DNA of 64,000 nt from an uncultured Actinomycetes bacterium (GCA_963727185.1 CAVSFP010000006.1:259135-323134), one strand, 5' to 3'; counted from the first letter of the stretch, positions 1 through 29,275 are shown. Notes: generated from the sequence alone by a model not told the origin. Numbers and translations are program-made.

Positions 1-772
1 CCGGGCGGCGGGGCGCTCGCTGGCCGAGCACCTCGGCGCCGGGACGGACCGGGTGGCCTGCGGCGTGTCGGTCGGCATCGCCGACACGACCGAGCAGCTC
101 CTGCAACAGGTGGACGGCTACCTGGCGGAGGGATACCGGCGCATCAAGCTGAAGATCGAACCGGGCACCGACGTGGAACGGGTGGGCGCGGTCCGGTCCG
201 CGCACCCCGACATCGCGCTCTCCGTCGACGCGAACGCCGCGTACACGCTCGCCGATGTCGATGTCTTCCGGGCGCTCGATGGGTTCGACCTGCTCATGAT
301 CGAACAACCCCTGCACCAGGACGACCTGGTGGAACACGCGAAGCTGCAGGCGCAGATCCGGACCGACATCTGCCTGGACGAGTCGATCCGATCGGCCGCC
401 GACACCGCCGCAGCGATCGAGCTGGGTGCCTGCCGCATCGTGAACATCAAGCAGGGTCGCGTGGGAGGGGTGCTCGAAGCCGTGCGCATCCACGATGTCG
501 CCCGCTCCGCCGGCGTTCCGGTCTGGTGCGGCGGCATGCTCGAGACAGGGATCGGGCGGGCGACCAACCTCGCGCTGGCGTCGCTCCCGGGATTCACGCT
601 CCCCGGCGACACCAGCGCGTCGGCGCGATATTTCGCGGACGATGTGACCACGCCGTTCGTGATGGCGCCCGACGGCTCGATGGAGGTGCCACGGGGGGCG
701 GGCATCGGTGTGACGCCGCGGCCGGATCGCCTCGCGGCCACGACGCTGCGCGTAGAGCTGCTATCGCCGTAG
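1..772 (+). CDS. o-succinylbenzoate synthase / N-acylamino-acid racemase family enzyme (enolase superfamily); 5' end outside window
   Basis: The frame of track ORF 53..772 stays open to the window edge. Blocks KLKIEPG, SVDANAAY, LLMIEQPL, CLDESI, VNIKQGRVGG and WCGGMLETGIGR are typical of the MR/MLE (OSBS/NAAAR) subgroup. Confidence 0.85.
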   Translation, partial: RAAGRSLAEHLGAGTDRVACGVSVGIADTTEQLLQQVDGYLAEGYRRIKLKIEPGTDVERVGAVRSAHPDIALSVDANAAYTLADVDVFRALDGFDLLMIEQPLHQDDLVEHAKLQAQIRTDICLDESIRSAADTAAAIELGACRIVNIKQGRVGGVLEAVRIHDVARSAGVPVWCGGMLETGIGRATNLALASLPGFTLPGDTSASARYFADDVTTPFVMAPDGSMEVPRGAGIGVTPRPDRLAATTLRVELLSP

Positions 773-862
773 CGCGTTTCATATCGGCGCGCTGCTTGAG
801 CCGAGCCCCCGGGCAGGCGACGATAGGCGCAACGCCGCGAGTTCGCCGCGGCGTCCTCACTC

Positions 863-1423
863 ATGAAGAAACGTGTGGTGCGCGCCGAGGAGTTCGAGGT
901 CGTTGACGCGGCCGGCAACGTCCGTCTGCGTATCGGCCTGTCGGCCGACGAATCCCCGTTCTTCTCGATGCTCGATCCTGGCGGACAGGTGCGCGCCCGG
1001 TTCGGGCTCTCGGCCGACGGCTCCGCCGGGCTCGCGATCGGCGACGACAACGGCAAGGTCCGTGCGACGCTCGGTCTGTCCTCCGACGGCTCCGCCAGCC
1101 TCGCGTTCGGCGACAAGAATGGCCGGATCCGTGCGAAGTTCGGTCTGGCGCCCGAGGCGTCTCCCACGCTCGGTATGCAGGTCCGCAGCGGCGAGCTCCA
1201 CCAGGTCTACAGCCTGGCCGAGCAAGGGTCCCCGACGATGGGTCTCTATGACCGGTCCGGCAAGGTCCGTGTGAGGCTCGGCCTGGCCGCAGAGGGTTCG
1301 CCGGTGTTGCGCTTGCTCGACAAGGAGGGCGAGCTCCGCGCGGTCGTCGGTCTGGCGGGCGACGGCAGCCCGTTCATCCAGTTCATGGACGAGCAGAAGG
1401 CACCGACCTGGACCATGCGATGA
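863..1423 (+). CDS. hypothetical protein made of about 7.5 tandem 23-aa repeats
   Basis: Track ORF with ATG at 863. Repeats are visible in the translation (DAAGNVRLRIGLSADESPF / DPGGQVRARFGLSADGSAG / DDNGKVRATLGLSSDGSAS ...). The stop overlaps the next start (ATGA at 1420-1423). No signal peptide and no recognised family. Confidence 0.65.
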   Translation: MKKRVVRAEEFEVVDAAGNVRLRIGLSADESPFFSMLDPGGQVRARFGLSADGSAGLAIGDDNGKVRATLGLSSDGSASLAFGDKNGRIRAKFGLAPEASPTLGMQVRSGELHQVYSLAEQGSPTMGLYDRSGKVRVRLGLAAEGSPVLRLLDKEGELRAVVGLAGDGSPFIQFMDEQKAPTWTMR

Positions 1424-1928
1424 ACGGCTGGTGGGCGACGGCGTTCATCGCGCAGTGGCTGCTGGTGCTCGTGCTCGCCGCGGTCGTCGTGGCGCTCGCG
1501 CGGCAGGTCGGGACGCTCCATCTCCGGCTGGGCCCGCGCGGCGCGCTCGAGATCGATGCCGAGGGCCCCGCGGTCGGTGAAGCTCCCCCGCCCTGCCGGC
1601 GACGGCGGACGACGGCCATCGTGTGTTGGTAGGCGGTCCCGGGCCGCCGCGGTTGGTGCTCTTCTCGTCGCCGACCTGTTCGATCTGCACTGAGGTCGCT
1701 CCGGGGATCGGAGCGGCCGCGTCCGCGGCGGGTCTTGCGCCGATGATCCTGCACGACCCCGACCTCGAACGGACCTACGACGTCCCGGGAACGCCGTTCC
1801 TGCTCGTCATGGACGAGCTCGGAACGGTCCGTGCCAAAGGCACGGTCAACAACCTCGAGCAGGTCGAAGGGCTGGTCGATGTGGCGCTCCGCCGGATGGG
1901 GGAGGTGGCGGAGCGACGGGCCAGCTGA
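1420..1928 (+). pseudogene. MauD-like membrane-anchored thioredoxin-fold protein (CSIC motif), split by one frameshift near 1591-1597
   Basis: Track ORF 1420..1632 gives an N-terminal TM helix then LHLRLGPRGALEIDAEGPAVGEAPPP. Track ORF 1623..1928 gives LVLFSSPTCSICTEV and a thioredoxin-like remainder. They join into one MauD-type protein (..APPPLPATADDGHRVLVGG..) if one base is restored in the C-run. Confidence 0.7.
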
Positions 1929-1942
1929 CCCCCATCGAACGC

Positions 1943-2455
1943 GTGGGGCGCGGGATCGCCTCACGGACCAGCAGACGCGGGTTCCTCGGCAAGCTCGGAC
2001 GAGGGGTGGTGGCGCTGGCGGGCGGCGGCCTGGTCGCGACCGCGCTCGCGCCCGAGCGAGCGTCGGCGTACACGGATATCTGCGGGCACACGTACACGAC
2101 GGGCGAGTGCCCGCACCCGTTCGGCAAGTTCGCCCGGACCGACGCGTTCGGGTATCCGGTGCAGCCGAAGTACGGGTACCCCGTCGATGACGACGGGGAG
2201 ATCTACACGGACCCCGCGACGCAGATACGGCGCAAGGTCTGTGAGCAACGGGTGCCGGATACGTACCACTTCGTCAAGGATCCGCACTACGGCGGCGGCT
2301 GGACGCGATGCTGCAACGGTCGCCTGCGCCACATCCAGGACTGCTGTTCGGCGTCGCGCATCCGGATCAACGGGGACGCGTCGCTGACCGGCTATTGCCC
2401 GACCGGGCTCCGCGTCTTCTGCATCACCTACCGGGAACTCGAGGCGTCGTGCTAG
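1943..2455 (+). CDS. methylamine/aromatic-amine dehydrogenase light-chain (MauA)-like Cys-rich protein with twin-arginine signal
   Basis: Track ORF with GTG at 1943. SRRGFLGKLG Tat motif and an ASA cleavage-like site. Ten Cys in the mature part. GGGWTRCC and HIQDCC resemble the Trp-quinone and DCC blocks of MauA (compared from memory). Confidence 0.72.
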   Translation: MGRGIASRTSRRGFLGKLGRGVVALAGGGLVATALAPERASAYTDICGHTYTTGECPHPFGKFARTDAFGYPVQPKYGYPVDDDGEIYTDPATQIRRKVCEQRVPDTYHFVKDPHYGGGWTRCCNGRLRHIQDCCSASRIRINGDASLTGYCPTGLRVFCITYRELEASC

Positions 2456-2535
2456 ACGGTAGGTTGTCGACGGCGCTCGTGGTGGCGTCGGCGATCGCCG
2501 GCTGGTCCGCGCTCCACGGTCCCTGAGGCCTGTCG

Positions 2536-3660
2536 ATGGTGGAGACCATCTCCCCCGTGGTCCACGGGGGGCGCGCGCGCTGGCTGGGAACGCTCGCACT
2601 GCACACGATCGGTGCGACGGGTACCGCCGCGTTGTTCGGCGCGACCCTCGGCTGGATCGGGCAGGCGCTGGGCGCACCGTGGCAGCGTCCGGGGCTGCTC
2701 GCGCTCGCAACGATCTCGGCGATCTACGCGATCGGCGTCCTGACACGGTTCAGCGTGCCGGTCCCGCAACTCCGCCGGCAGGTTCCGGACTGGTGGCGCA
2801 CCTACTTCGGCAGATCGTTCGCGGCCTTGTTGTACGGCGCCGGTCTCGGGATCGGGTTCCTGACCTACGTGTCGTACGGCACGCTCGTGGTGGTCGCCTT
2901 CGCCGCGGTGGCGAGCGGACGCCCCGCGGTGGGCGCGCTCGTCATGGCGCCGTTCGGGTTGGCGCGCGGCCTGTCGGCGGTCGTCTCGTGGCGATCGATC
3001 GACCAGGAACGGAGCCGGGCGCTCGTGGACCGCTTGGTCGCGGCAGGCGACGCACCTCGGCGCATCGTGAACGGCGTCGCGCTCGTCGCGATCGCGATCG
3101 CGGCCGGCGTGGCATCGGTCCGGGTCGGCGCCGGGTCGTGGGGGAGCGCCGCGGCCGCCGCGCTCGCCGCGGTGTTCGTGTGGGCGGCGGCGTCCAAGGT
3201 GGTGGGTGCCCGTCGATGGCGCCGCGCGCTTCCCGCCTACGGCCTGCCCCCCGCGCTCGAGCGCACGGCCGCGTGGGCGGTCCCGGTGGCGGAGTCGATG
3301 GTGGTGGCCCTCATCGTTGCCGGCCTGCCCCGTGCGGCGGCCGTGTGGTCGGGCGTCCTCCTCGTGCTGTTCTCCGGCGCTCTGGTCCGCGCGGGTCGGA
3401 GGGTGGGAGGTCGCGTTCCATGCGGCTGCCTCGGGGGGAGCGGCGACATCGACGTGAGCGCCGCGCTGGCTCGGAACCTGGCGTTGCTCCTGGTTGCGGT
3501 GTTCGTGTTCGGGAGCGCCTCTGACTCGCCGTCGATCGCGTGGCCGGGCGCGCCGGGCGCGGCGGACGTGTTGCCGATGCTGCTCGCGCTCGGCGCGCTC
3601 ACGGCGTCCGCACTCGTCGTGTGGCGTGCCTCCGTCTGGCTCGCACGAGGGAACGCGTGA
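2536..3660 (+). CDS. polytopic membrane protein with C-terminal MauE/DoxX-like domain and an extra N-terminal multi-TM module
   Basis: Track ORF with many hydrophobic helices. The C-terminal ~150 aa (FVWAAASKV...VPCGCLGGSG...ARNLALLLVAVFVF) look like MauE. The N-terminal half is unassigned (possibly MauF/DsbD_2-like; inference only). Confidence 0.7.
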   Translation: MVETISPVVHGGRARWLGTLALHTIGATGTAALFGATLGWIGQALGAPWQRPGLLALATISAIYAIGVLTRFSVPVPQLRRQVPDWWRTYFGRSFAALLYGAGLGIGFLTYVSYGTLVVVAFAAVASGRPAVGALVMAPFGLARGLSAVVSWRSIDQERSRALVDRLVAAGDAPRRIVNGVALVAIAIAAGVASVRVGAGSWGSAAAAALAAVFVWAAASKVVGARRWRRALPAYGLPPALERTAAWAVPVAESMVVALIVAGLPRAAAVWSGVLLVLFSGALVRAGRRVGGRVPCGCLGGSGDIDVSAALARNLALLLVAVFVFGSASDSPSIAWPGAPGAADVLPMLLALGALTASALVVWRASVWLARGNA

Positions 3661-4307
3661 GCGGCACCGGGGTACGGGTGCGTCGGCTCCTGCCGTTCGC
3701 CGCGGCGGTCCTCACGGTGACGGTGGTGACGGTGGTCGCGCTCGCCGCCGGCCCGTCGTCGCGGGCGCAGGTGCAGGATCCGAACGACACCCGCGGGTTG
3801 TTGGACGTGCGTCGGGTGTGGTTCGAACCCGAGATCCACCCGCCGCGCTGGACCGTCGTGACGTACCAGCCGTTCACGGCGGAGCAGACCCGCGATCGGG
3901 GGTACGTGTTCGTGTATCTGGACACGTTCGGTGACGAGGGGTTCGACTACTACGCGTTGATCCTGTCCAATGGCCGTCGCCTCTCGGGTTCGCTCTGGCG
4001 CGAGCCGAAGCGGGGGCCCGACGTGCGGCTCATGGGTCTGGATGTGCGCCACGATTCCGACACCGAGGTGTCGGTGCGGATCCCGTTCGGGCAGCTCGAT
4101 GTCGGCGCGTTCCGGACGGTGTATCGGTGGTCGGTCGTTACCACGTTCACCGGACGGAACTGCCGTGCCACGTGCATCGACCGCGTTCCCGACGATGGCA
4201 CGTTCGAGCAACCGATCGGATCGCTCACGCCGACCCCCACGACATCGCCGACCGCGACGCCGACGCCGACGCTCACTCCATCACCGAGCGTCGCGACGCC
4301 GCGCTGA
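3657..4307 (+). CDS. secreted or anchored hypothetical protein with Pro/Thr-rich C-terminal tail
   Basis: In-frame GTG at 3657 overlaps the previous stop (GTGA). RRLLPFAAAVLTVTVVTVVALAAG is signal-like. The tail is TPTPTTSPTATPTPTLTPSPS. The track start at 3540 lies inside the upstream gene. Confidence 0.6.
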   Translation: MSGTGVRVRRLLPFAAAVLTVTVVTVVALAAGPSSRAQVQDPNDTRGLLDVRRVWFEPEIHPPRWTVVTYQPFTAEQTRDRGYVFVYLDTFGDEGFDYYALILSNGRRLSGSLWREPKRGPDVRLMGLDVRHDSDTEVSVRIPFGQLDVGAFRTVYRWSVVTTFTGRNCRATCIDRVPDDGTFEQPIGSLTPTPTTSPTATPTPTLTPSPSVATPR

Positions 4308-4313
4308 ACGGGA

Positions 4314-5327
4314 TCAGGACCGGAGCCAGTACCCGACCGGGAACGGCCGGACCTTCGTGTGCTCGGAGATGAAGCCCCAGATCCCTCGCGGCAACCAGAT
4401 CGCCACCAGGATGGCGACGCCTCCCAGGATCATCAGGTACCAGGCTCCGTACTGCGCCAGCGTCTGTTGCAGCGCGAAGAACAGCACGGCGCCGATGATC
4501 GGCCCCTCGATCGAGCCGATCCCGCCGATCACGGTGACGAAGATCATCTGCGCCGACCACTCGACGCTGAACACCGACGCCGGCTGGACATTCAGCTGGC
4601 TGATCGCCAGCAACGCGCCTCCCGCGCCGCACCCGGCCGCGGCCGCGAGGTACACCAGCCGTTTCGCGCCCAAGACCTTGGCGCCGAGGCTCCGCGCGCC
4701 GACCTCGTTGTCGCGCACAGCCGTGAGCACCAGTCCGAGCCTGCTCCGCAGCAGCAGGTACGTGGCCGCGAGCACGATGACCGCAACGGCGAGCGCGGCC
4801 CAATACGTGTATGCCGTGAGCAAGGTCGGGTCGACGCCGGACAGTCCCGCGACGCCCGCTCCGGTCCCGCCTCCCAGGGTCGACGAGCGGCTCACGATCA
4901 GCTGGCACGTATCGGCCACGACCCAGGTCGCGATCGCGAAGTAACCCCCGCGGAGCCGCAGGACCAGGAGCGAGATCGGGAACGCGAGGACGGCGCAGCC
5001 AACCGCGGCGAACGGGATCGCGACGAACGGGCTGACGCCGTGGAGGGCCAGGAACAACACGATGTAGGCCCCCATCCCGATGAACGCTTGCTGTCCCACT
5101 GAGACCAATCCCGCGTAGCCCGCCAGCAGGTTCCACATGCTCGCGAGCGTGAGCAGGATGAACAGGTTGACCAGCGTATCCGTCGTCCCCGAGTACACCG
5201 CGTACGGCAGGTAGGCGAGCACACCTACGACGGCCACACTCGTGAGCGCGGTCCAGCGCATCGGCGCCCTCGACCTGGTGACCCGAACGGTGGCTCCCGG
5301 TTCGGATGGAACGCTCCTCGCGCTCAC
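4314..5327 (-). CDS. livM: branched-chain amino acid (HAAT family) ABC transporter permease, LivM type
   Basis: Track ORF. GTG at 5327 overlaps the livH stop (GTGA). Polytopic, with GQQAFIGMGAY and RDNEVGARSLG blocks. Confidence 0.85.
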   Translation of the reverse strand: MSARSVPSEPGATVRVTRSRAPMRWTALTSVAVVGVLAYLPYAVYSGTTDTLVNLFILLTLASMWNLLAGYAGLVSVGQQAFIGMGAYIVLFLALHGVSPFVAIPFAAVGCAVLAFPISLLVLRLRGGYFAIATWVVADTCQLIVSRSSTLGGGTGAGVAGLSGVDPTLLTAYTYWAALAVAVIVLAATYLLLRSRLGLVLTAVRDNEVGARSLGAKVLGAKRLVYLAAAAGCGAGGALLAISQLNVQPASVFSVEWSAQMIFVTVIGGIGSIEGPIIGAVLFFALQQTLAQYGAWYLMILGGVAILVAIWLPRGIWGFISEHTKVRPFPVGYWLRS

Positions 5328-6172
5328 GCTTCGACGCGCCCCCCGGTGATGCCTTCGGGTCGGACGGCCAGCACGACGAGGAACACCGCATTCCCGGCCA
5401 GGACCTGCAGGCTGGGATCGATGTGCGCGCCGATCGCCTGGGCGACGCCCAGGATGATGCCTCCCAGGAGGGTTCCCCAGAGCGAACCGAGCCCGCCGAT
5501 CACGACGGCCTCGAACGCGAAGAGGAGCCGGCTCGAGCCCGAGCTGGGGTTGAAGGACGAGTACGTCCCGAACGCGAGCCCCGCCAGCGCCACGGTCGCG
5601 AACGCGATCGACGCGGCGATCCCGAAGATGTGGCGATAGTCGATGCCTACGAGCCTCGCGGCTTCCGGATCATCGGCGACCGCGCGGATCATGTGTCCCG
5701 TTCGTGTCCTGGACAGGAAGTACTGCAGGCCGAGGAGGACGACCACGGCGAGGACGAAGATGGCGATCGACAGGTAGGCCACCTGGATCTGGTCCGTGAT
5801 GTGGATCGACGCGGTTCCGAGCGAACCGATGTCCAGCGAGTGGCTGTCCGCCGAGAACGCCTGGAGCAAGAGGTTCTCGATGACGATCGCCACCCCGAAC
5901 GTGACGAGGAGGGTCGTGAGCGGGCCGCGGTCGAGGCTCGCCTGGATCAGCGTTCGCTGCCCGACGTACCCCAGGACCAGGAACAGCGGCAGGACGAACA
6001 GGAACGACCAGACGATCGGGATGTGGAACACGGGCGCCAGCTCCACGGCGAGGAACGCCGCGACGACCGCCAGGTCGCCGTGGGCCAGGTTGATCACCTT
6101 CATCGTGCCGAACAAGAGCGAGAGGCCGCACGCGAACAGGGCGAAGAGCCCACCGACGAGGATCCCTTGCAC
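5324..6172 (-). CDS. livH: HAAT family ABC transporter permease, LivH type
   Basis: Track ORF with INLAHGDL and VIGGLGSLWG blocks typical of LivH. Confidence 0.88.
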   Translation of the reverse strand: MQGILVGGLFALFACGLSLLFGTMKVINLAHGDLAVVAAFLAVELAPVFHIPIVWSFLFVLPLFLVLGYVGQRTLIQASLDRGPLTTLLVTFGVAIVIENLLLQAFSADSHSLDIGSLGTASIHITDQIQVAYLSIAIFVLAVVVLLGLQYFLSRTRTGHMIRAVADDPEAARLVGIDYRHIFGIAASIAFATVALAGLAFGTYSSFNPSSGSSRLLFAFEAVVIGGLGSLWGTLLGGIILGVAQAIGAHIDPSLQVLAGNAVFLVVLAVRPEGITGGRVEA

Positions 6173-6190: not shown

Positions 6191-6925
6191 TCACGACGCC
6201 GATCCCGTCGTGGACAGCCCGAAGTACGCCGCCTCGATCTCTTCGGGAGTGAACTGATCCGGCCGTCCCTCCAACGTGGTCCGTCCTTCGAGGAGGCACT
6301 GGATGCGAGAGGCGGCGCGAACCGCCTGACTGACGTCCTGCTCGACGAGCAACACGGTCATCCCGGCGCCCAGCAGCTCCGGTAGCAGCCCGTAGATCTG
6401 CCGGACCACGACGGGCGCCAAGCCCAGGGAGAGCTCGTCGAGGAGCAGAACGCGCGGGTTCGCCACGAGCGCGCGCCCGATCGCGACGGCCTGCTGCTCG
6501 CCTCCCGAGAGCTGCGCGGTGCGCTGGTGCGTGCGCTCGCGCATCCAGCCGAACAGTTGGTACACGCGCTCGAGGTCCCAGGGCCCGGGGCGGCTGTGGT
6601 ACGACCCCACGAGCAGGTTCTCCTCGACCGTGAGCGACGGGAACAGCCGGCGACCCTCCGGGACGAGCGCGATCCCGGCGACGAGGCGCCGTTCGGGCGT
6701 GACCGAGGTCACGTCGTCGCCGTCGAGCAGGACGGTTCCCTCGGTCGGCTGGTGCAGTCCGGCGATCGTACGGAGCAACGTGGACTTGCCGGCGCCGTTC
6801 GCGCCGATCATCGCGTAGACCTCACCGGCGTCGACGCGCAGGCTCACGTCGGTCAGCGCGCGGAGCTGTCCGTGGAACACCGTCAGGCCCCGCACTTCCA
6901 GGACGGGGCGTTGTGCGTCCGTCAT
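6191..6925 (-). CDS. livF: HAAT family ABC transporter ATP-binding protein, LivF type
   Basis: ATG at 6925 overlaps the livG stop (ATGA). Walker A GANGAGKST, signature LSGGEQQ, Walker B LLLDE. Confidence 0.88.
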   Translation of the reverse strand: MTDAQRPVLEVRGLTVFHGQLRALTDVSLRVDAGEVYAMIGANGAGKSTLLRTIAGLHQPTEGTVLLDGDDVTSVTPERRLVAGIALVPEGRRLFPSLTVEENLLVGSYHSRPGPWDLERVYQLFGWMRERTHQRTAQLSGGEQQAVAIGRALVANPRVLLLDELSLGLAPVVVRQIYGLLPELLGAGMTVLLVEQDVSQAVRAASRIQCLLEGRTTLEGRPDQFTPEEIEAAYFGLSTTGSAS

Positions 6926-7713
6926 CTGGTCGTCTCCGGTTCGGACCCGGGCCACTCGGCCTCCAGACCGGCTTCGGCCAGGGACTCAGCGGTGGCCTCC
7001 GTGCCCAGGAAGACCTCCTTGACCGCGGGGCTCGCGAGCACGTCGGCGGGGCTCCCATCGCCGACGAAGCGTCCTCCGGCCAGGCAGATCAGCCGATCCA
7101 CGGTCTCGACCAACGCGCGCACGACGTGTTCGATCCAGATCACCGCCGTGCCTCCCTCGCGCGCGCGCCGGACCACATCGACCAGTTCCACGACCTCAGG
7201 ATCCGTCAGCCCTCCCGCCACCTCGTCGAGCAGGAGGAGACGGGGGCGCGTCGCGAGCGCCCGGGCGAGCTCCAGTCGCTTGCGCTGCAAGAGCCCCAGC
7301 TGGCCGGACGGGCGGTTCGCATCGCTGCGAAGTCCGGTGTCGTCGAGCACGGACGCCGCCAGCTCGTAGCTGGCTCCTCCGCGTGATCCCGCTCCCTGCT
7401 GCGCGGCGAGGAGGACGTTCTCGAAGACCGTCATGTCTTCGAACGGCCGAGGGACCTGGTACGTCCGCCCGATGCCCAGGCGGCAGCGGAGCGCCGGGTC
7501 GAGCGGCGTGATCGTCGCGCCGTCGAACCGGATCTCACCCCGGTCGGGCGACAGGTCGCCGCCGATCACGCCGAAGAGGCTCGTCTTGCCCGCGCCGTTG
7601 GGGCCGACGATGCCGATCGCGTCGCCGGGTTGCACGACGAGCGTCAGGTCGTCGGCGATCGTGACCTGACCGAACCGTTTGGTGATGTGGTCGAGCTCGA
7701 GCAGTGCCCCCAC
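6922..7713 (-). CDS. livG: HAAT family ABC transporter ATP-binding protein, LivG type
   Basis: GTG at 7713 lies 2 nt after the binding-protein stop. Walker A GPNGAGKTS and LLLLDEVAGGL. The 7714-8016 part of the track ORF overlaps the upstream gene out of frame. Confidence 0.88.
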   Translation of the reverse strand: MGALLELDHITKRFGQVTIADDLTLVVQPGDAIGIVGPNGAGKTSLFGVIGGDLSPDRGEIRFDGATITPLDPALRCRLGIGRTYQVPRPFEDMTVFENVLLAAQQGAGSRGGASYELAASVLDDTGLRSDANRPSGQLGLLQRKRLELARALATRPRLLLLDEVAGGLTDPEVVELVDVVRRAREGGTAVIWIEHVVRALVETVDRLICLAGGRFVGDGSPADVLASPAVKEVFLGTEATAESLAEAGLEAEWPGSEPETTR

Positions 7714-10243: not shown

Positions 10244-11708
10244 ATGACATTGCTCGAAGCGGATCGTTGGACCGGCCAGGTCTTCGTCGATGGATGGGAG
10301 CCGGGCGGTGGCGGGGACTACGCCGTCATCGGAGCCCGCGACCGGCGACGAGCTCGGCCGCCTCGGTGTGGCGTCGGTCGCGGACGTGGCCCGCGCCGCT
10401 GCCCGCGCGTCCGAGGCCCAGCGTGCGTGGGCCGACACGATGTATCAGGAGCGAGCCGCCATCCTGCGGAGGGCGGGCGACCTGTGGAACCAGCATCAGG
10501 AAGAGGTCGAGGGGTGGATCGTCCGCGAGACCGGAGCCATCCCGCCGAAAGGCGAGCTCGAGATGTGGTTCGCGGCGAGCACGTGCTACGAGTCGGCCGG
10601 GCTGGCGTCGCTGCCCTACGGCGAGCTGCTCCGGACGCGTGACCCGATCCTCAGCATGTCCCGGCGCGTACCCGTCGGCGTGGTCGGGGTCATCTCGCCG
10701 TTCAACTTCCCGCTGATCCTGTCGATCCGCGCGGTCGCGCCGGCGCTCGCGCTGGGCAACGCCGTGATCCTGAAGCCCGACCCCCGTACGTCCGTGTCCG
10801 GCGGTGTCACGCTCGCCCGGATCTTCGAGGAGGCGGGTCTGCCCGATGGCCTCTTCAGCGTGCTGCCGGGCGGCGTCGACATCGGCGAGGCGCTCGTGCG
10901 CGAGCCGAAGGTCGACATGGTCTCGTTCACCGGCTCGTCGGCGGGAGGCAAGGCGGTCGCCGCGCTCGGCCGCGGAGCAGCCTGAAGCGCATCCACCTGG
11001 AGCTCGGTGGCAACAACGCGATGATCGTGCTGGACGACGTCGATCTCGAGAAGGCCGCGTCGGTCGGCTGCGTTCGGCTCCTTCATGCACCAGGGCCAGA
11101 TCTGCATGACGACCGGCCGGCACCTGGTGCAGCGCAGCATCGCCGACGAGTACGTCGAGAAGCTCGCCGAGCACGCCGACCATCTGCCGGTCGGCGATCC
11201 GAACGCCGGACAGGTCGCGCTCGGCCCGATCATCGACGAGAAGCAGCGCGATCAGGTGCACGGTCGGTGACGGAGTCGGTCGACAAGGGCGCGCGGCTCG
11301 CGGCCGGCGGGACGTACGAGGGCCTCTTCTACCGGCCGACCGTGCTCGCCGACGTGCCGACGGATTCGCCGGCGTGCGATGGAGGAGATCTTCGGACCGG
11401 TCGCGCCGGTGGTCGCGTTCGATTCGATCGACGAGGCGGTGAAGATCGCCAGCGACACGCACTACGGACTCTCGCTCGGCATCCTCACGAACGACGTGAT
11501 GCGCGGCCTCGAGATCGCGGACCGCATCCCGACCGGGATCGTGCACATCAACGACCAGACGATCGGCGACGAGGTGGTCAACCCGTTCGGCGGGGTGAAG
11601 AGCTCGGGGCCGGGCGCGCGGTTCGGCGGGGCGCAGGCGAACATCGATGCGTTCACGCAGCTGCAGTGGGTGACGATGCGCGGCGACCTCCCCGCGTACC
11701 CGTTCTGA
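10244..11708 (+). pseudogene. NAD(P)-dependent aldehyde dehydrogenase (benzaldehyde/vanillin dehydrogenase-like), multiple frameshifts
   Basis: ATG at 10244 follows a GAAGGGGAGG RBS. Fragments lie in track ORFs 10157.., 10290..10985, 11085..11270 and 11379..11708: VGVISPFNFPL, LKRIHLELGGNNAMIV, FMHQGQICMTTGRHLV, EEIFGPVAPV, PFGGVKSSG. Confidence 0.85.
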
Positions 11709-11730
11709 GCCCACCCGGACCTCGGGCGGC

Positions 11731-14071
<2,341 letters not shown>

Positions 14072-20101: not shown

Positions 20102-20419
20102 TCAGGCGATCGCGTCCCGCGAGCTCGCGGGGCTCGATCGCGAGGCGTCATCTCCGTCTCTTCGGATCAGCCCGGGTGGCATCTCGCGACACGCGATCCG
20201 TCCGGCGCCGGAGGCGCCGCGGACCGGCCATCCCGCCTCGACGTCCATCCGATGGTTCGGCACCGGATGGCAGATCGAGAACGGCGGACCTTGAACGTCG
20301 ACGCCCTGCTCCTCGATGTAGGTGCGGATCTGGCGGAGCGCCTCGCGGATGAACGACGGCGCCTGGCGCTCATCGACGCGGTCGCGGATGCTCAGCACGG
20401 GCTGGAACGCCTTGGTCAT
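20102..20419 (-). CDS. GyrI-like small-molecule-binding domain protein, apparently C-terminally truncated
   Basis: Track ORF with a TAGGAGG RBS 7 nt upstream. IREALRQIRTYIEEQGVDVQGPPFSICH...MDVEAGWPV...GRIACREMPPG resembles effector-binding (GyrI-like) domains. The tail LIRRDGDDASRSS looks unrelated. Confidence 0.5.
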   Translation of the reverse strand: MTKAFQPVLSIRDRVDERQAPSFIREALRQIRTYIEEQGVDVQGPPFSICHPVPNHRMDVEAGWPVRGASGAGRIACREMPPGLIRRDGDDASRSSPASSRDAIA

Positions 20420-20431
20420 ATCGATCGCCTC

Positions 20432-21430
20432 CTATCCGGTCCTCACAGGGGTCGTGGGTGCGAGATCGTCGCCGGGCGTGTCGATCAGCTCGAAGCATCG
20501 ATCGACACCGCCTCGCACGCTCTGCATGCCGAGCCTGAGGTCGACCAGGCCGTCGAACCCCCAGAAGACCCGTTGCGAGAGGAGGTACAGGGTGATCAGG
20601 GTGCCGATGTGTTGCGTGCCTACGAAGGCCGCGACGACGACGACCGCGATGGGTCCGAGCTTCGCGAGCCCGCCCGACCCTTGGAAGTTGAGCGCCCGCA
20701 ACCAGCCGAGCCGGACCTCGGAGGCCATCAACTTCTCGGCGGCCGCGCGGAAGCGGCTCGGAGCGTCCGGATCGTCGCGACGCTGGAGCTCGCGCGAGAT
20801 AGAGCTCGTCATGGCCTCGAGCTCTTCCTGGCGACGCTGACCCGCGGTCGACGCCGGCTCCTGCGTCCGCTTCATCACGAACCAGATGCTCGTGAGCGTG
20901 ACGACCACGACCACGACGGACCAGGGCTCCAAGAGCGCGAGTAAGACGAGCGCGCTCGCGAACTCCACCACCAGCATCGACCCGCTGTCGATCAGTGACA
21001 TCGTGACCTGCTCGAGGGTCTCGGCGTCGGAGATGAACCGTGACGCGAGCCCTTCGCTGTCCTCGCCCGCGTCTGCCTTGCGGACCGCCCCTCCGAACAT
21101 CTGGAGGCGGACATCCATGTAAAGGCGGCTCGCGTTCTTCGCGTACATCCCGTCTGAAGCGATGTAAGCCGCCGCTTCGCCCACGATGGCGAGCACGATC
21201 AAGCCGGTCATGAGGAGTGCCTCTGGTCGGTCGTTGCGCTCGACGAGGGCGTCGACCAGCAGCCCGAGTGCGACCGGTGGGATCAGGCCGACCAGTACAC
21301 CCGTGACCGTGAGGGCGACCATGGCCGCGACGCCGCGCCAGAGCGGTCGCACCAGCCCCATCACGCGCCGCCACGGGATGGGCGCAGGTCGAGGGTCGCT
21401 CGGTCCCCCCGTCTCACTCAGATCAGCCAC
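20432..21430 (-). pseudogene. ABC exporter transmembrane domain only (no nucleotide-binding domain follows); probable gene remnant
   Basis: Track ORF of 332 aa with six-helix type-I exporter TMD features. It ends at ...CFELIDTPGDD, just where an NBD normally starts. No Walker motifs follow in any frame. Confidence 0.65.
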
Positions 21431-28915: not shown

Positions 28916-29275
28916 ATGAAGTACATGCTCTTGATCCATCAGGGCGACGCGCCGACACCCGCATCGCCGGAGGCATGGGCCACGTTGTCGGCGGACGAGC
29001 AGCAAGCCGTGTACGCCGACTACCAGGCCATCAACCAGACCCCGGGTGTGACGCCGGGCATGGGCTTGGATCTCCCCGAGACGGCGACCACCGTGCGGGT
29101 GCAGGACGGCAAGACGCTCACGACCGACGGCCCGTTCGTTGAGATCAAAGAATCCATCGGCGGCTACCTCCTGTTCGAGGCCGCCGATCTCGACGCGGCC
29201 ATCGAGCTGGCCGCGCGGGTCCCGGCGGCGCGCCTCGGCGGTGCGGTCGAGGTCCGCCCCATCGTGGAGTGGTGA
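28916..29275 (+). CDS. YCII-related (DGPF) domain protein
   Basis: Track ORF following a GAAGGAGGA RBS. MKYMLLI...TDGPFVEIKESIGGYLLFEAADLDAAIELA is typical. Confidence 0.85.
   Translation: MKYMLLIHQGDAPTPASPEAWATLSADEQQAVYADYQAINQTPGVTPGMGLDLPETATTVRVQDGKTLTTDGPFVEIKESIGGYLLFEAADLDAAIELAARVPAARLGGAVEVRPIVEW

Follow-up and report, generated by a model that had tools for sequence, protein, structure and literature searches.

We analysed a 64,000-nucleotide (nt) stretch of DNA of about 70% G+C from an uncultured Actinomycetes bacterium (GCA_963727185.1, CAVSFP010000006.1:259135-323134), hereafter the window, with a focus on five plus-strand genes at positions 863-4307. The reading that we favour, with moderate confidence, is that these genes form a Mau-type maturation cassette for extracytoplasmic thiol-redox chemistry, in which the cargo is a protein other than the light chain of methylamine dehydrogenase and a fused MauF-MauE membrane protein probably bears selenocysteine (Sec). 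The candidate Sec codon is an in-frame TGA at 2524-2526 on the plus strand, which aligns with the Cys of the MauF motif WSPCG. An earlier sequence-only reading of this DNA had described five closely coupled genes, and analysis of open reading frames (ORFs) agrees: all five are present, with stops and starts that overlap or abut, pointing to a single operon.

A MauF-MauE fusion protein with a TGA codon at the MauF cysteine

The fourth gene of the operon (2449-3660, plus strand) encodes by translation a membrane protein of 403 codons, including an N-terminal helix and the in-frame UGA. In the product of 2536-3660, residues 205-324 match the MauE family PF07291 (81.1 bits against a cutoff of 27, E 1.1e-22), the C-terminal half aligns with MauE of Paracoccus denitrificans (hhalign, 96.7%), and a CGC motif is invariant in this MauE-like half. 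The N-terminal half aligns with residues 98-238 of P. denitrificans MauF (hhalign, 97.5%, E 6.9e-12, 140 columns), where the two share the pattern VPxPQxRxQVP (VPVPQLRRQVP against VPYPQRRAQVP), and with a MauF-like protein of Solirubrobacter (hhalign, 98.7%); direct tblastn with MauF gave 42% identity over 100 amino acids (aa). There is no curated Pfam or NCBIfam model for the MauF part, the MauF-MauE profile found no real match among PDB sequences, and crude hydropathy of the fusion protein did not settle its membrane topology. The sequence-only reading had seen a double-length membrane protein with a MauE-like end, which the PF07291 match bears out; it had missed the MauF-homologous half and the GTG start at 2449. 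Because a MauF homologue is present, the link to Mau is stronger than had been recognised.

The frame of the fusion extends upstream of the ATG at 2536 to GTG 2449, across the TGA at 2524-2526. The 80 nt before the ATG, seemingly non-coding, lie in this frame; together with the first codons of the ORF they read V L D G R L S T A L V V A S A I A G W S A L H G P (TGA) G L S M V E T. The TGA is conserved in all 66 loci examined, with the upstream helix kept in the same frame, and differences in spacer length are multiples of three in 64 of the 66; TGA is also found in two more divergent loci, L095 and L096. P. denitrificans MauF reads TWSPCGYS, and its Cys lines up with the TGA of GP-TGA-G. The MauF-like protein of Solirubrobacter, whose start overlaps the cargo stop, begins VLTAVIVVAAVAAGVTGAWSPCGFSMVETLAP and has Cys where the window has TGA. 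Both states of the codon occur in a sister subfamily (subfamily 2; loci L090-L092 and L097-L176, from Thermoleophilia and soil metagenomes): among 70 metagenomic loci it is TGC in 48, TGT in 3 and TGA in 19. The TGA clade of this subfamily reads WSP*SLSMVGT, and L156, its Cys-bearing sister, reads WSPCSLSMVGT. TGA is the usual stop of the neighbouring genes, indicating that the genetic code has not been reassigned. In published prediction work, an in-frame UGA, Cys-containing homologues and a selenocysteine insertion sequence (SECIS) element are the marks of a selenoprotein, and Cys-to-Sec changes are found mostly in thiol-redox proteins (PMC1794560).

Two conserved hairpins follow the TGA at 2535-2570 on the plus strand and represent a candidate SECIS element. 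The first (GAUGGU-GGAG-ACCAUC, 2535-2550) begins 8 nt after the UGA and the second (CCCCCGUG-GUC-CACGGGGG, 2552-2570) 25 nt after it. Across 63 distinct sequences, 93.4% of the hairpin cells are paired, a figure to be read with the caveat that the arms overlap strongly conserved codons. Compensatory changes were seen at two pairs: 29-47 is CG in 45 and GC in 14, and 30-46 is CG, UG or UA. In addition, codons +1 to +15 after the TGA show a synonymous-entropy ratio of 0.45, compared with 0.87 for the remaining codons (p = 0.002). In the second TGA clade a hairpin of another sequence, CGGCAC-CGUGN-GUGCCG, follows the UGA by 14 nt; L156 is without it. A comparison of overall folding energy between TGA and Cys forms was uninformative, since every sequence is GC-rich. 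In many Cys-form genes of subfamily 2 (e.g., L090, 10663-10700), a hairpin UCUCGA-UGG-UCGAGA lies over the FSMVET codons in another register than that of the window; it may be what is left of a SECIS element, or a palindrome that arose by chance.

Several observations weigh against Sec. In the window's subfamily, UGAGG, 7 nt and then ATG could represent a stop, a Shine-Dalgarno sequence and a restart. Searches of the window and of about 1.5 Mb of related loci, which are local stretches only (with flanks of up to 10 kb), turned up no selA, selB, selD or tRNA-Sec. The minimum free energy of the hairpin region (-24.6 kcal/mol) is unexceptional for its G+C content (z-score -1.2), and an Rfam scan around the TGA gave no family match, only a chance match to ArcZ. 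On this evidence the TGA might be a real stop at which an ancestral MauF was split at the Cys codon, leaving a one-helix peptide of 25-34 aa and a MauF-MauE protein whose translation begins anew at ATG 2536 from a GAGG ribosome-binding site. Such a restart would be workable, its bases are invariant, and gene callers begin the protein at MVET. A split, however, would delete a Cys that P. denitrificans MauF and the Cys-form MauF-like proteins have in common, yet the P-x-G context is kept. The second TGA clade reads UGAAGCCUCUCCAUG, without GAGG, and TGA and TGC are swapped at exactly the same codon in close relatives. Furthermore, in the nine bases from the TGA to the ATG most of the variation falls on the third base of each codon (GGN, CTN/TTG/ATG/TTC, TCG), a three-base periodicity like that of coding sequence, and the synonymous sites after the TGA are constrained. 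We therefore regard the split as unlikely, though well short of negligible. From the conservation of the UGA, its interchange with Cys codons and the hairpins, we infer Sec insertion, and the sequence evidence makes Sec at 2524-2526 the likely meaning of this codon.

Literature searches on MauF and on Mau-linked selenoproteins found no report of a MauF- or MauE-type selenoprotein. A coding-signal scan, whose thresholds did not flag the TGA at 2524, flagged a single site in the window, at 29273, as an in-frame TGA with coding on both sides. This site was rejected as a Sec candidate; it lies between a 119-aa gene and a gene for a DUF6596 sigma factor and looks like an ordinary junction.

A MauD-like partner of the fusion protein

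The second gene of the operon (1420-1928, plus strand) encodes a membrane-anchored, MauD-like thioredoxin-fold protein with a CxxC motif (PTCSIC). In the window it is interrupted by a 1-nt deletion: its 509 nt contain two ORFs in different frames (1420-1632 and 1623-1928), each matching TIGR02661, and DNA alignment with the related loci L004, L007 and L008 places the frameshift in a run of C with one base missing, at about 1584-1588 on the plus strand. The repaired 169-aa product has an N-terminal anchor and matches TIGR02661 MauD (E 8.9e-21, 74 bits); since this is under the equivalog cutoff of 188.6 bits, the protein is a relative of MauD and not an equivalog. P. denitrificans MauD gave tblastn matches in 139 related loci, down to E 8e-24, and the orthologues are about 30% identical to it over the full length. 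The sequence-only reading had named a MauD-like thioredoxin-fold protein here, which is correct for the repaired product and not for the DNA as it stands, where there is no single open frame.

Taken at face value, the frameshift is a point against a functional cassette in this genome. It is probably an assembly error, which is the likelier explanation because 80 of 81 related loci have an unbroken orthologue (159-184 aa) and other genes of the window also look split. An aldehyde dehydrogenase is divided between 10290-10985 (profile positions 8-223 of 461) and 11021-11998, and an ABC membrane gene at 20102-21430 looks broken, which suggests that the assembly carries indel errors.

The cargo is a Tat substrate with a predicted fold unmatched in the PDB

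The third gene (1943-2455, plus strand) encodes a 170-aa precursor, here called the cargo. By hhalign its leader (1943-2068, plus strand; SRRGFLGKLG ... ALAPERASA-Y) is MauA-like, including the segment before the twin arginines. It has the features of a twin-arginine translocation (Tat) signal, namely a twin-arginine motif in which R11 and R12 are invariant, a hydrophobic region and an AxA cleavage site; TIGR01409 scores 16.1 bits against a cutoff of 16.7. In relatives the cargo starts 5-10 residues farther upstream (e.g., MTPIERVER...), the equivalent in the window being CTG 1925, and the true start may be this codon and not GTG 1943. The mature domain of 128 aa (2069-2455, plus strand) contains 10 invariant Cys in alignments and has a C-terminal Cys. 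Its motifs are CGH..CPHP, (G)W(T/S)RCC, DCC(S/G), RINGD and GYC, of which CGH, CPHP, RINGD and GYC are invariant, along with near-invariant His residues. The leader and the 10 Cys uphold the earlier description of a Tat-exported, Cys-rich product.

The cargo is encoded in 143 species representatives. A search with the cargo subfamily of the window gave 835 hits, the best 120 of which are at least 65% identical, and in a hidden Markov model (HMM) search of 1.84 billion representatives the main family was a single cluster at 50% identity. Most other hits of the HMM search were frameshifted or garbled gene calls, and subfamily 2 emerged from them. A query assembled from subfamily 2 fragments then gave 2618 hits, the named ones including Candidatus Solirubrobacter pratensis and a Gaiellaceae metagenome-assembled genome (MAG). 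None of the family members listed in the two subfamily searches has a Pfam domain or a functional name. One homologue, P0247, reads as if every C of its DNA had become T (His to Tyr, Pro to Leu, Arg to Cys or Trp); the underlying reads were probably damaged or of bisulfite type. In subfamily 2 the cargo has an insertion of 20-30 residues; its gene comes after that of a MauE-MauD fusion and before that of a MauF joined to an outer domain of about 270 aa, and genes for lactonase-type seven-blade propellers lie near these loci.

The mature domain failed Pfam, NCBIfam, and PDB sequence and profile searches. An AlphaFold2 model of it, built on 140 sequences of both subfamilies, reached a predicted local distance difference test (pLDDT) score of 90.6 and a predicted template-modelling (pTM) score of 0.83. 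This run replaced an earlier one on the full precursor with 21 close homologues, which had a pLDDT of 58 and gave meaningless Foldseek matches. In a Foldseek search of the model against the PDB, the best E was 0.58, and the TM score was at most 0.24 among the 50 matches listed, with no light chain. The fold predicted for the cargo thus appears to be unmatched in the PDB.

We propose that the 170-aa precursor is directed to the Tat pathway by its leader, with the unusual MauA-type segment before the twin arginines, and that cleavage after ASA would release the 128-aa domain with its 10 invariant Cys. These Cys could then be oxidised, or shuffled and isomerised, by a relay of the MauD homologue, through its CxxC, and the MauF-MauE fusion, through a selenol or thiol of MauF and the CGC of MauE. 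The fusion protein would start at GTG 2449, and Sec at UGA 2524-2526 would replace the WSPCG Cys, giving GP-U-GLSMVETISPVVHGGR as the read-through peptide and marking the redox-active site of MauF. The other two products of the operon, an exported CxxxC protein and a beta-hairpin repeat protein, may be lineage-specific partners. In this scheme the direction of electron flow, the disulfide pattern and the role of the cargo are inferred. The relay chemistry is drawn by analogy from the part that MauE and MauD have been suggested to play when light chains are made (van der Palen 1997, cited in PMC7794033); in the citing paper the role of MauE in the disulfide bridges of the beta-subunit is "speculated" and the function of MauD is "unclear" (PMC7794033).

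Our data fit both disulfide formation by the cargo Cys and binding of a metal or cofactor by them, which tells against the thiol-redox scheme. The cargo could be a metal- or cofactor-containing redox protein (e.g., with Fe-S or Cu/Zn on Cys and His) that folds in the cytoplasm, MauD and MauF-MauE supplying reducing power outside as in CcdA-ResA. The invariant CGH...CPHP and the near-invariant His residues suit this account. Tat export usually serves proteins that are folded or loaded with their cofactor beforehand, and we take the SPC motif of MauF to recall the PC motifs of CcdA and DsbD. MauA, however, uses a Tat-type leader though its cofactor is made outside the cytoplasm, and Pfam, NCBIfam and Foldseek revealed no similarity of the cargo to any metalloprotein family or fold. 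The data fit either redox direction. We judge a cytoplasmically folded metal- or cofactor-binding cargo to be improbable, and prefer a substrate of extracytoplasmic thiol chemistry.

The sequence-only reading had taken the product of 1943-2455 for a MauA-like light-chain homologue. If so, it would be a very divergent relative of the light chain that carries tryptophan tryptophylquinone (TTQ), with a Trp-derived quinone made together with other partners. The MauA-like leader is consistent with this, as is the MauD-cargo order, which is the D-A order of mau/aau clusters. On visual inspection W(T/S)RCC...DCC(S/G) is reminiscent of the light-chain pattern SWxxxC...YxDCCG, and Thermomicrobium variants carry WYMCC...DCC and a C-terminal Cys. 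The comparisons nevertheless stop at the leader. In the light-chain family search, named beforehand as the refuting test, the mature cargo had no PF02975 match at E <= 0.1, and a TIGR02659 match (E 0.058) was confined to leader residues 1-26. When the cargo family was aligned by hhalign with six real light chains taken from mau/aau clusters on plasmids, the leader alone aligned, both with 21 sequences (95.2%, E 2.9e-8) and with 140 (94.2%). PDB sequence and profile searches with 1, 21 or 140 cargo sequences found no light chain, and neither did Foldseek with the confident model. As a positive control, two Thermomicrobium roseum genes pass PF02975 (1e-10 and 9e-9), which indicates that the same tools detect divergent light chains; when the mature cargo was compared by BLASTP with the light-chain-like protein of Thermomicrobium, there was no significant match. 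Furthermore, the mature cargo has a single invariant Trp (W120 of the precursor), and the position matched by eye to the second TTQ Trp is an invariant Tyr. Since TTQ needs two Trp, it is excluded. Together with the failure to find MauG and MauB in the window or in 80 related loci, these results make a divergent light chain very unlikely; on the sequence and model evidence, light-chain homology of the cargo is not supported.

The other components of the dehydrogenase were sought by tblastn. P. denitrificans MauB, MauG, amicyanin, MauJ, MauM and MauN, and P. aeruginosa AauB and cytochrome c-552, gave no hit at E <= 1e-3 in the window or the related loci (about 1.5 Mb). Pfam assigned unrelated functions to 20 other large ORFs of the window, among them DyP peroxidase, NuoF-like protein, ApbE, molybdopterin dehydrogenase, penicillin amidase, ABC exporters and GlnD. 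The earlier statements that MauB, MauG, c-type cytochrome and amicyanin are absent from the window and that the flanking genes are unrelated were thus borne out, and so was the view of a stand-alone set of Mau-type accessory genes that has neither a heavy chain nor MauG nor an electron acceptor in its vicinity.

The five-gene operon is conserved in a syntenic setting

The genes of the operon are tightly packed. The stop of the repeat-protein gene and the start of the MauD-like gene share ATGA at 1420-1423; 14 nt separate the end of the MauD-like gene (1928) from the cargo start GTG 1943; the cargo stop (2453-2455) overlaps the GTG 2449 start of the membrane protein (GTGCTAG); and the stop of the latter (3658-3660) overlaps GTG 3657, the start of the secreted protein. 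Downstream genes are convergent, on the minus strand (ORFs 4314-5327 and 5324-6172). Consensus scans of 700-4500 for promoters and terminators found nothing.

The closest relatives of the window are MAGs of uncultured soil Actinomycetota; in L004 (CAVTOC010000006.1) the central protein is 98% identical to that of the window. Window proteins were compared by tblastn with 83 related loci, of which 81 non-redundant ones were counted. The recurrence of the five-gene arrangement in relatives, as the sequence-only reading expected, was found throughout: the order is identical in every one of the 59 loci long enough to show all five genes. In L002 the repeat-protein gene is absent. Upstream of the operon, at 53-772, lies a menC-type gene for o-succinylbenzoate synthase, which occupies the same position in almost all relatives; a tRNA-Ile lies farther upstream, a tRNA-Ala downstream, and in L001 gyrBA is in the same neighbourhood. 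This setting looks like conserved core synteny. A functional link between menC and the operon was considered and rejected in favour of shared synteny, because the distance varies and genes intervene.

The first gene (863-1423, plus strand) encodes, as an ORF of 186 aa without a signal peptide, a protein of about 7.7 tandem beta-hairpin units. The units are of exactly 23 aa (period 69 nt in Tandem Repeats Finder), in agreement with the repeat length first described. Orthologues are 59-95% identical to the window copy among 21 aligned, and 58-97% by tblastn across loci. The profile matches engineered OspA beta-hairpin repeat proteins, which form a single-layer beta-sheet, in the PDB (E 1.6e-6), and no Pfam family matches. 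Conceivably, the protein could serve the Tat substrate in the cytoplasm, as a partner or a chaperone. The fifth gene (3657-4307, plus strand) encodes an exported protein of 216 aa, in which the alignment shows a signal peptide, a DPNDTxGxLD motif, conserved Asp residues, an invariant CxxxC and a Pro/Thr/Ser-rich tail, as anticipated for a secreted protein with a Pro/Thr tail. It has 181 homologues; among 120 listed, none has a Pfam domain and any name is "hypothetical protein". Its profile found no real match among PDB sequences. A resemblance to the outer domain of the Solirubrobacter MauF-like protein was considered and dropped, as profile comparison showed no similarity.

A cluster for a ribosomally synthesised and post-translationally modified peptide (RiPP) or similar secreted peptide, in which MauE and MauD modify a Cys-rich precursor, has been proposed in Streptomyces, where stand-alone mauE/mauD genes lie beside precursors with at least eight Cys (Kloosterman et al. 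2020, PMC7794033), but it is highly improbable here: the cargo is a folded 128-aa domain, with identities of 65% or more among its 120 best hits, and is spread over 143 species representatives, the locus is core syntenic between menC and tRNA-Ala, with gyrBA nearby in L001, and no peptidase, transporter or tailoring enzymes are present. Since the cargo is conserved, the synteny is that of core genes and tailoring genes are missing, a housekeeping function fits better than a variable natural product.

Relation to known systems

The closest characterised systems are the mau/aau clusters of Proteobacteria (e.g., mauRFBEDACJGMN of P. denitrificans), which serve the maturation of TTQ methylamine or aromatic amine dehydrogenases. 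The operon shares with them homologues of MauF, MauE and MauD, a small Cys-rich Tat substrate encoded directly after MauD, and a long leader that is conserved before the twin arginines. Unlike them, it has no heavy chain, MauG, amicyanin or cytochrome c, MauJ, MauM or MauN nearby, and its cargo has a mature domain unrelated in sequence and predicted fold, in which TTQ is not possible. It also differs in the fusion of MauF to MauE, in having TGA as the codon at the MauF Cys, and in two additional, lineage-specific genes.

Bacterial thiol oxidoreductases in which Cys has changed to Sec (PMC1794560) resemble the fusion protein in having an in-frame UGA at a conserved, presumably redox-active Cys, orthologues with Cys among close relatives and a stem-loop after the UGA. 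The fusion is unlike them in being a polytopic membrane protein, with the motif P-U-G and no nearby CxxU or UxxC partner. In the Streptomyces clusters detected by decRiPPter (PMC7794033), MauE and MauD homologues likewise stand beside a Cys-rich product outside methylamine metabolism; the window differs in its conserved, Tat-exported 128-aa domain, its core syntenic locus and the fusion of MauF to MauE.

On a megaplasmid of T. roseum (NC_011961.1, L085), divergent light-chain-like genes that pass PF02975 lie at 1693-2145 and 6455-7291, next to genes for hypothetical proteins of 403-456 aa and for a 596-aa protein with a C-terminal MauE domain, and to a gene with weak similarity to redoxins (Redoxin, E 0.0047). 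Like the window, this non-proteobacterial locus has a MauE fusion protein and a redoxin-like gene around small Cys-rich proteins. In contrast to the cargo, its small proteins pass PF02975 and keep both Trp positions. It may be a third kind of non-proteobacterial Mau-like locus.

Implications for the Mau helper proteins

To our knowledge, the roles of MauF, MauE and MauD in the biogenesis of TTQ enzymes are still poorly understood. The presence of these three helpers and a MauA-type leader without a dehydrogenase argues for a general maturation module for small Cys-rich Tat substrates, and the interchange of TGA and Cys codons marks one residue of MauF as its probable catalytic centre. Going further, we suggest tentatively, and at somewhat less than even confidence, that MauF is a redox enzyme whose active residue, the WSPCG Cys, has repeatedly been replaced by Sec in soil Actinomycetota. 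In the same extended proposal, MauF, MauE and MauD would be a cargo-independent cassette addressed by a MauA-type leader, here building a 10-Cys protein of new fold that may bear a cross-link or cofactor derived from Cys or Trp.

Stand-alone mauE/mauD genes beside Cys-rich precursors had already been noted in Streptomyces (PMC7794033); the present locus adds a candidate new selenoprotein family and an uncharacterised fold of the cargo. A Sec form would escape standard gene callers, which place the start at the Met that follows the TGA. The cargo family, with thousands of metagenomic members, is a target for structural and biochemical work. If Sec is confirmed, the fusion protein would represent a previously unrecognised family of polytopic, membrane-embedded selenoproteins, widespread in soil Actinomycetota and Thermoleophilia, and would provide the first functional handle on MauF.

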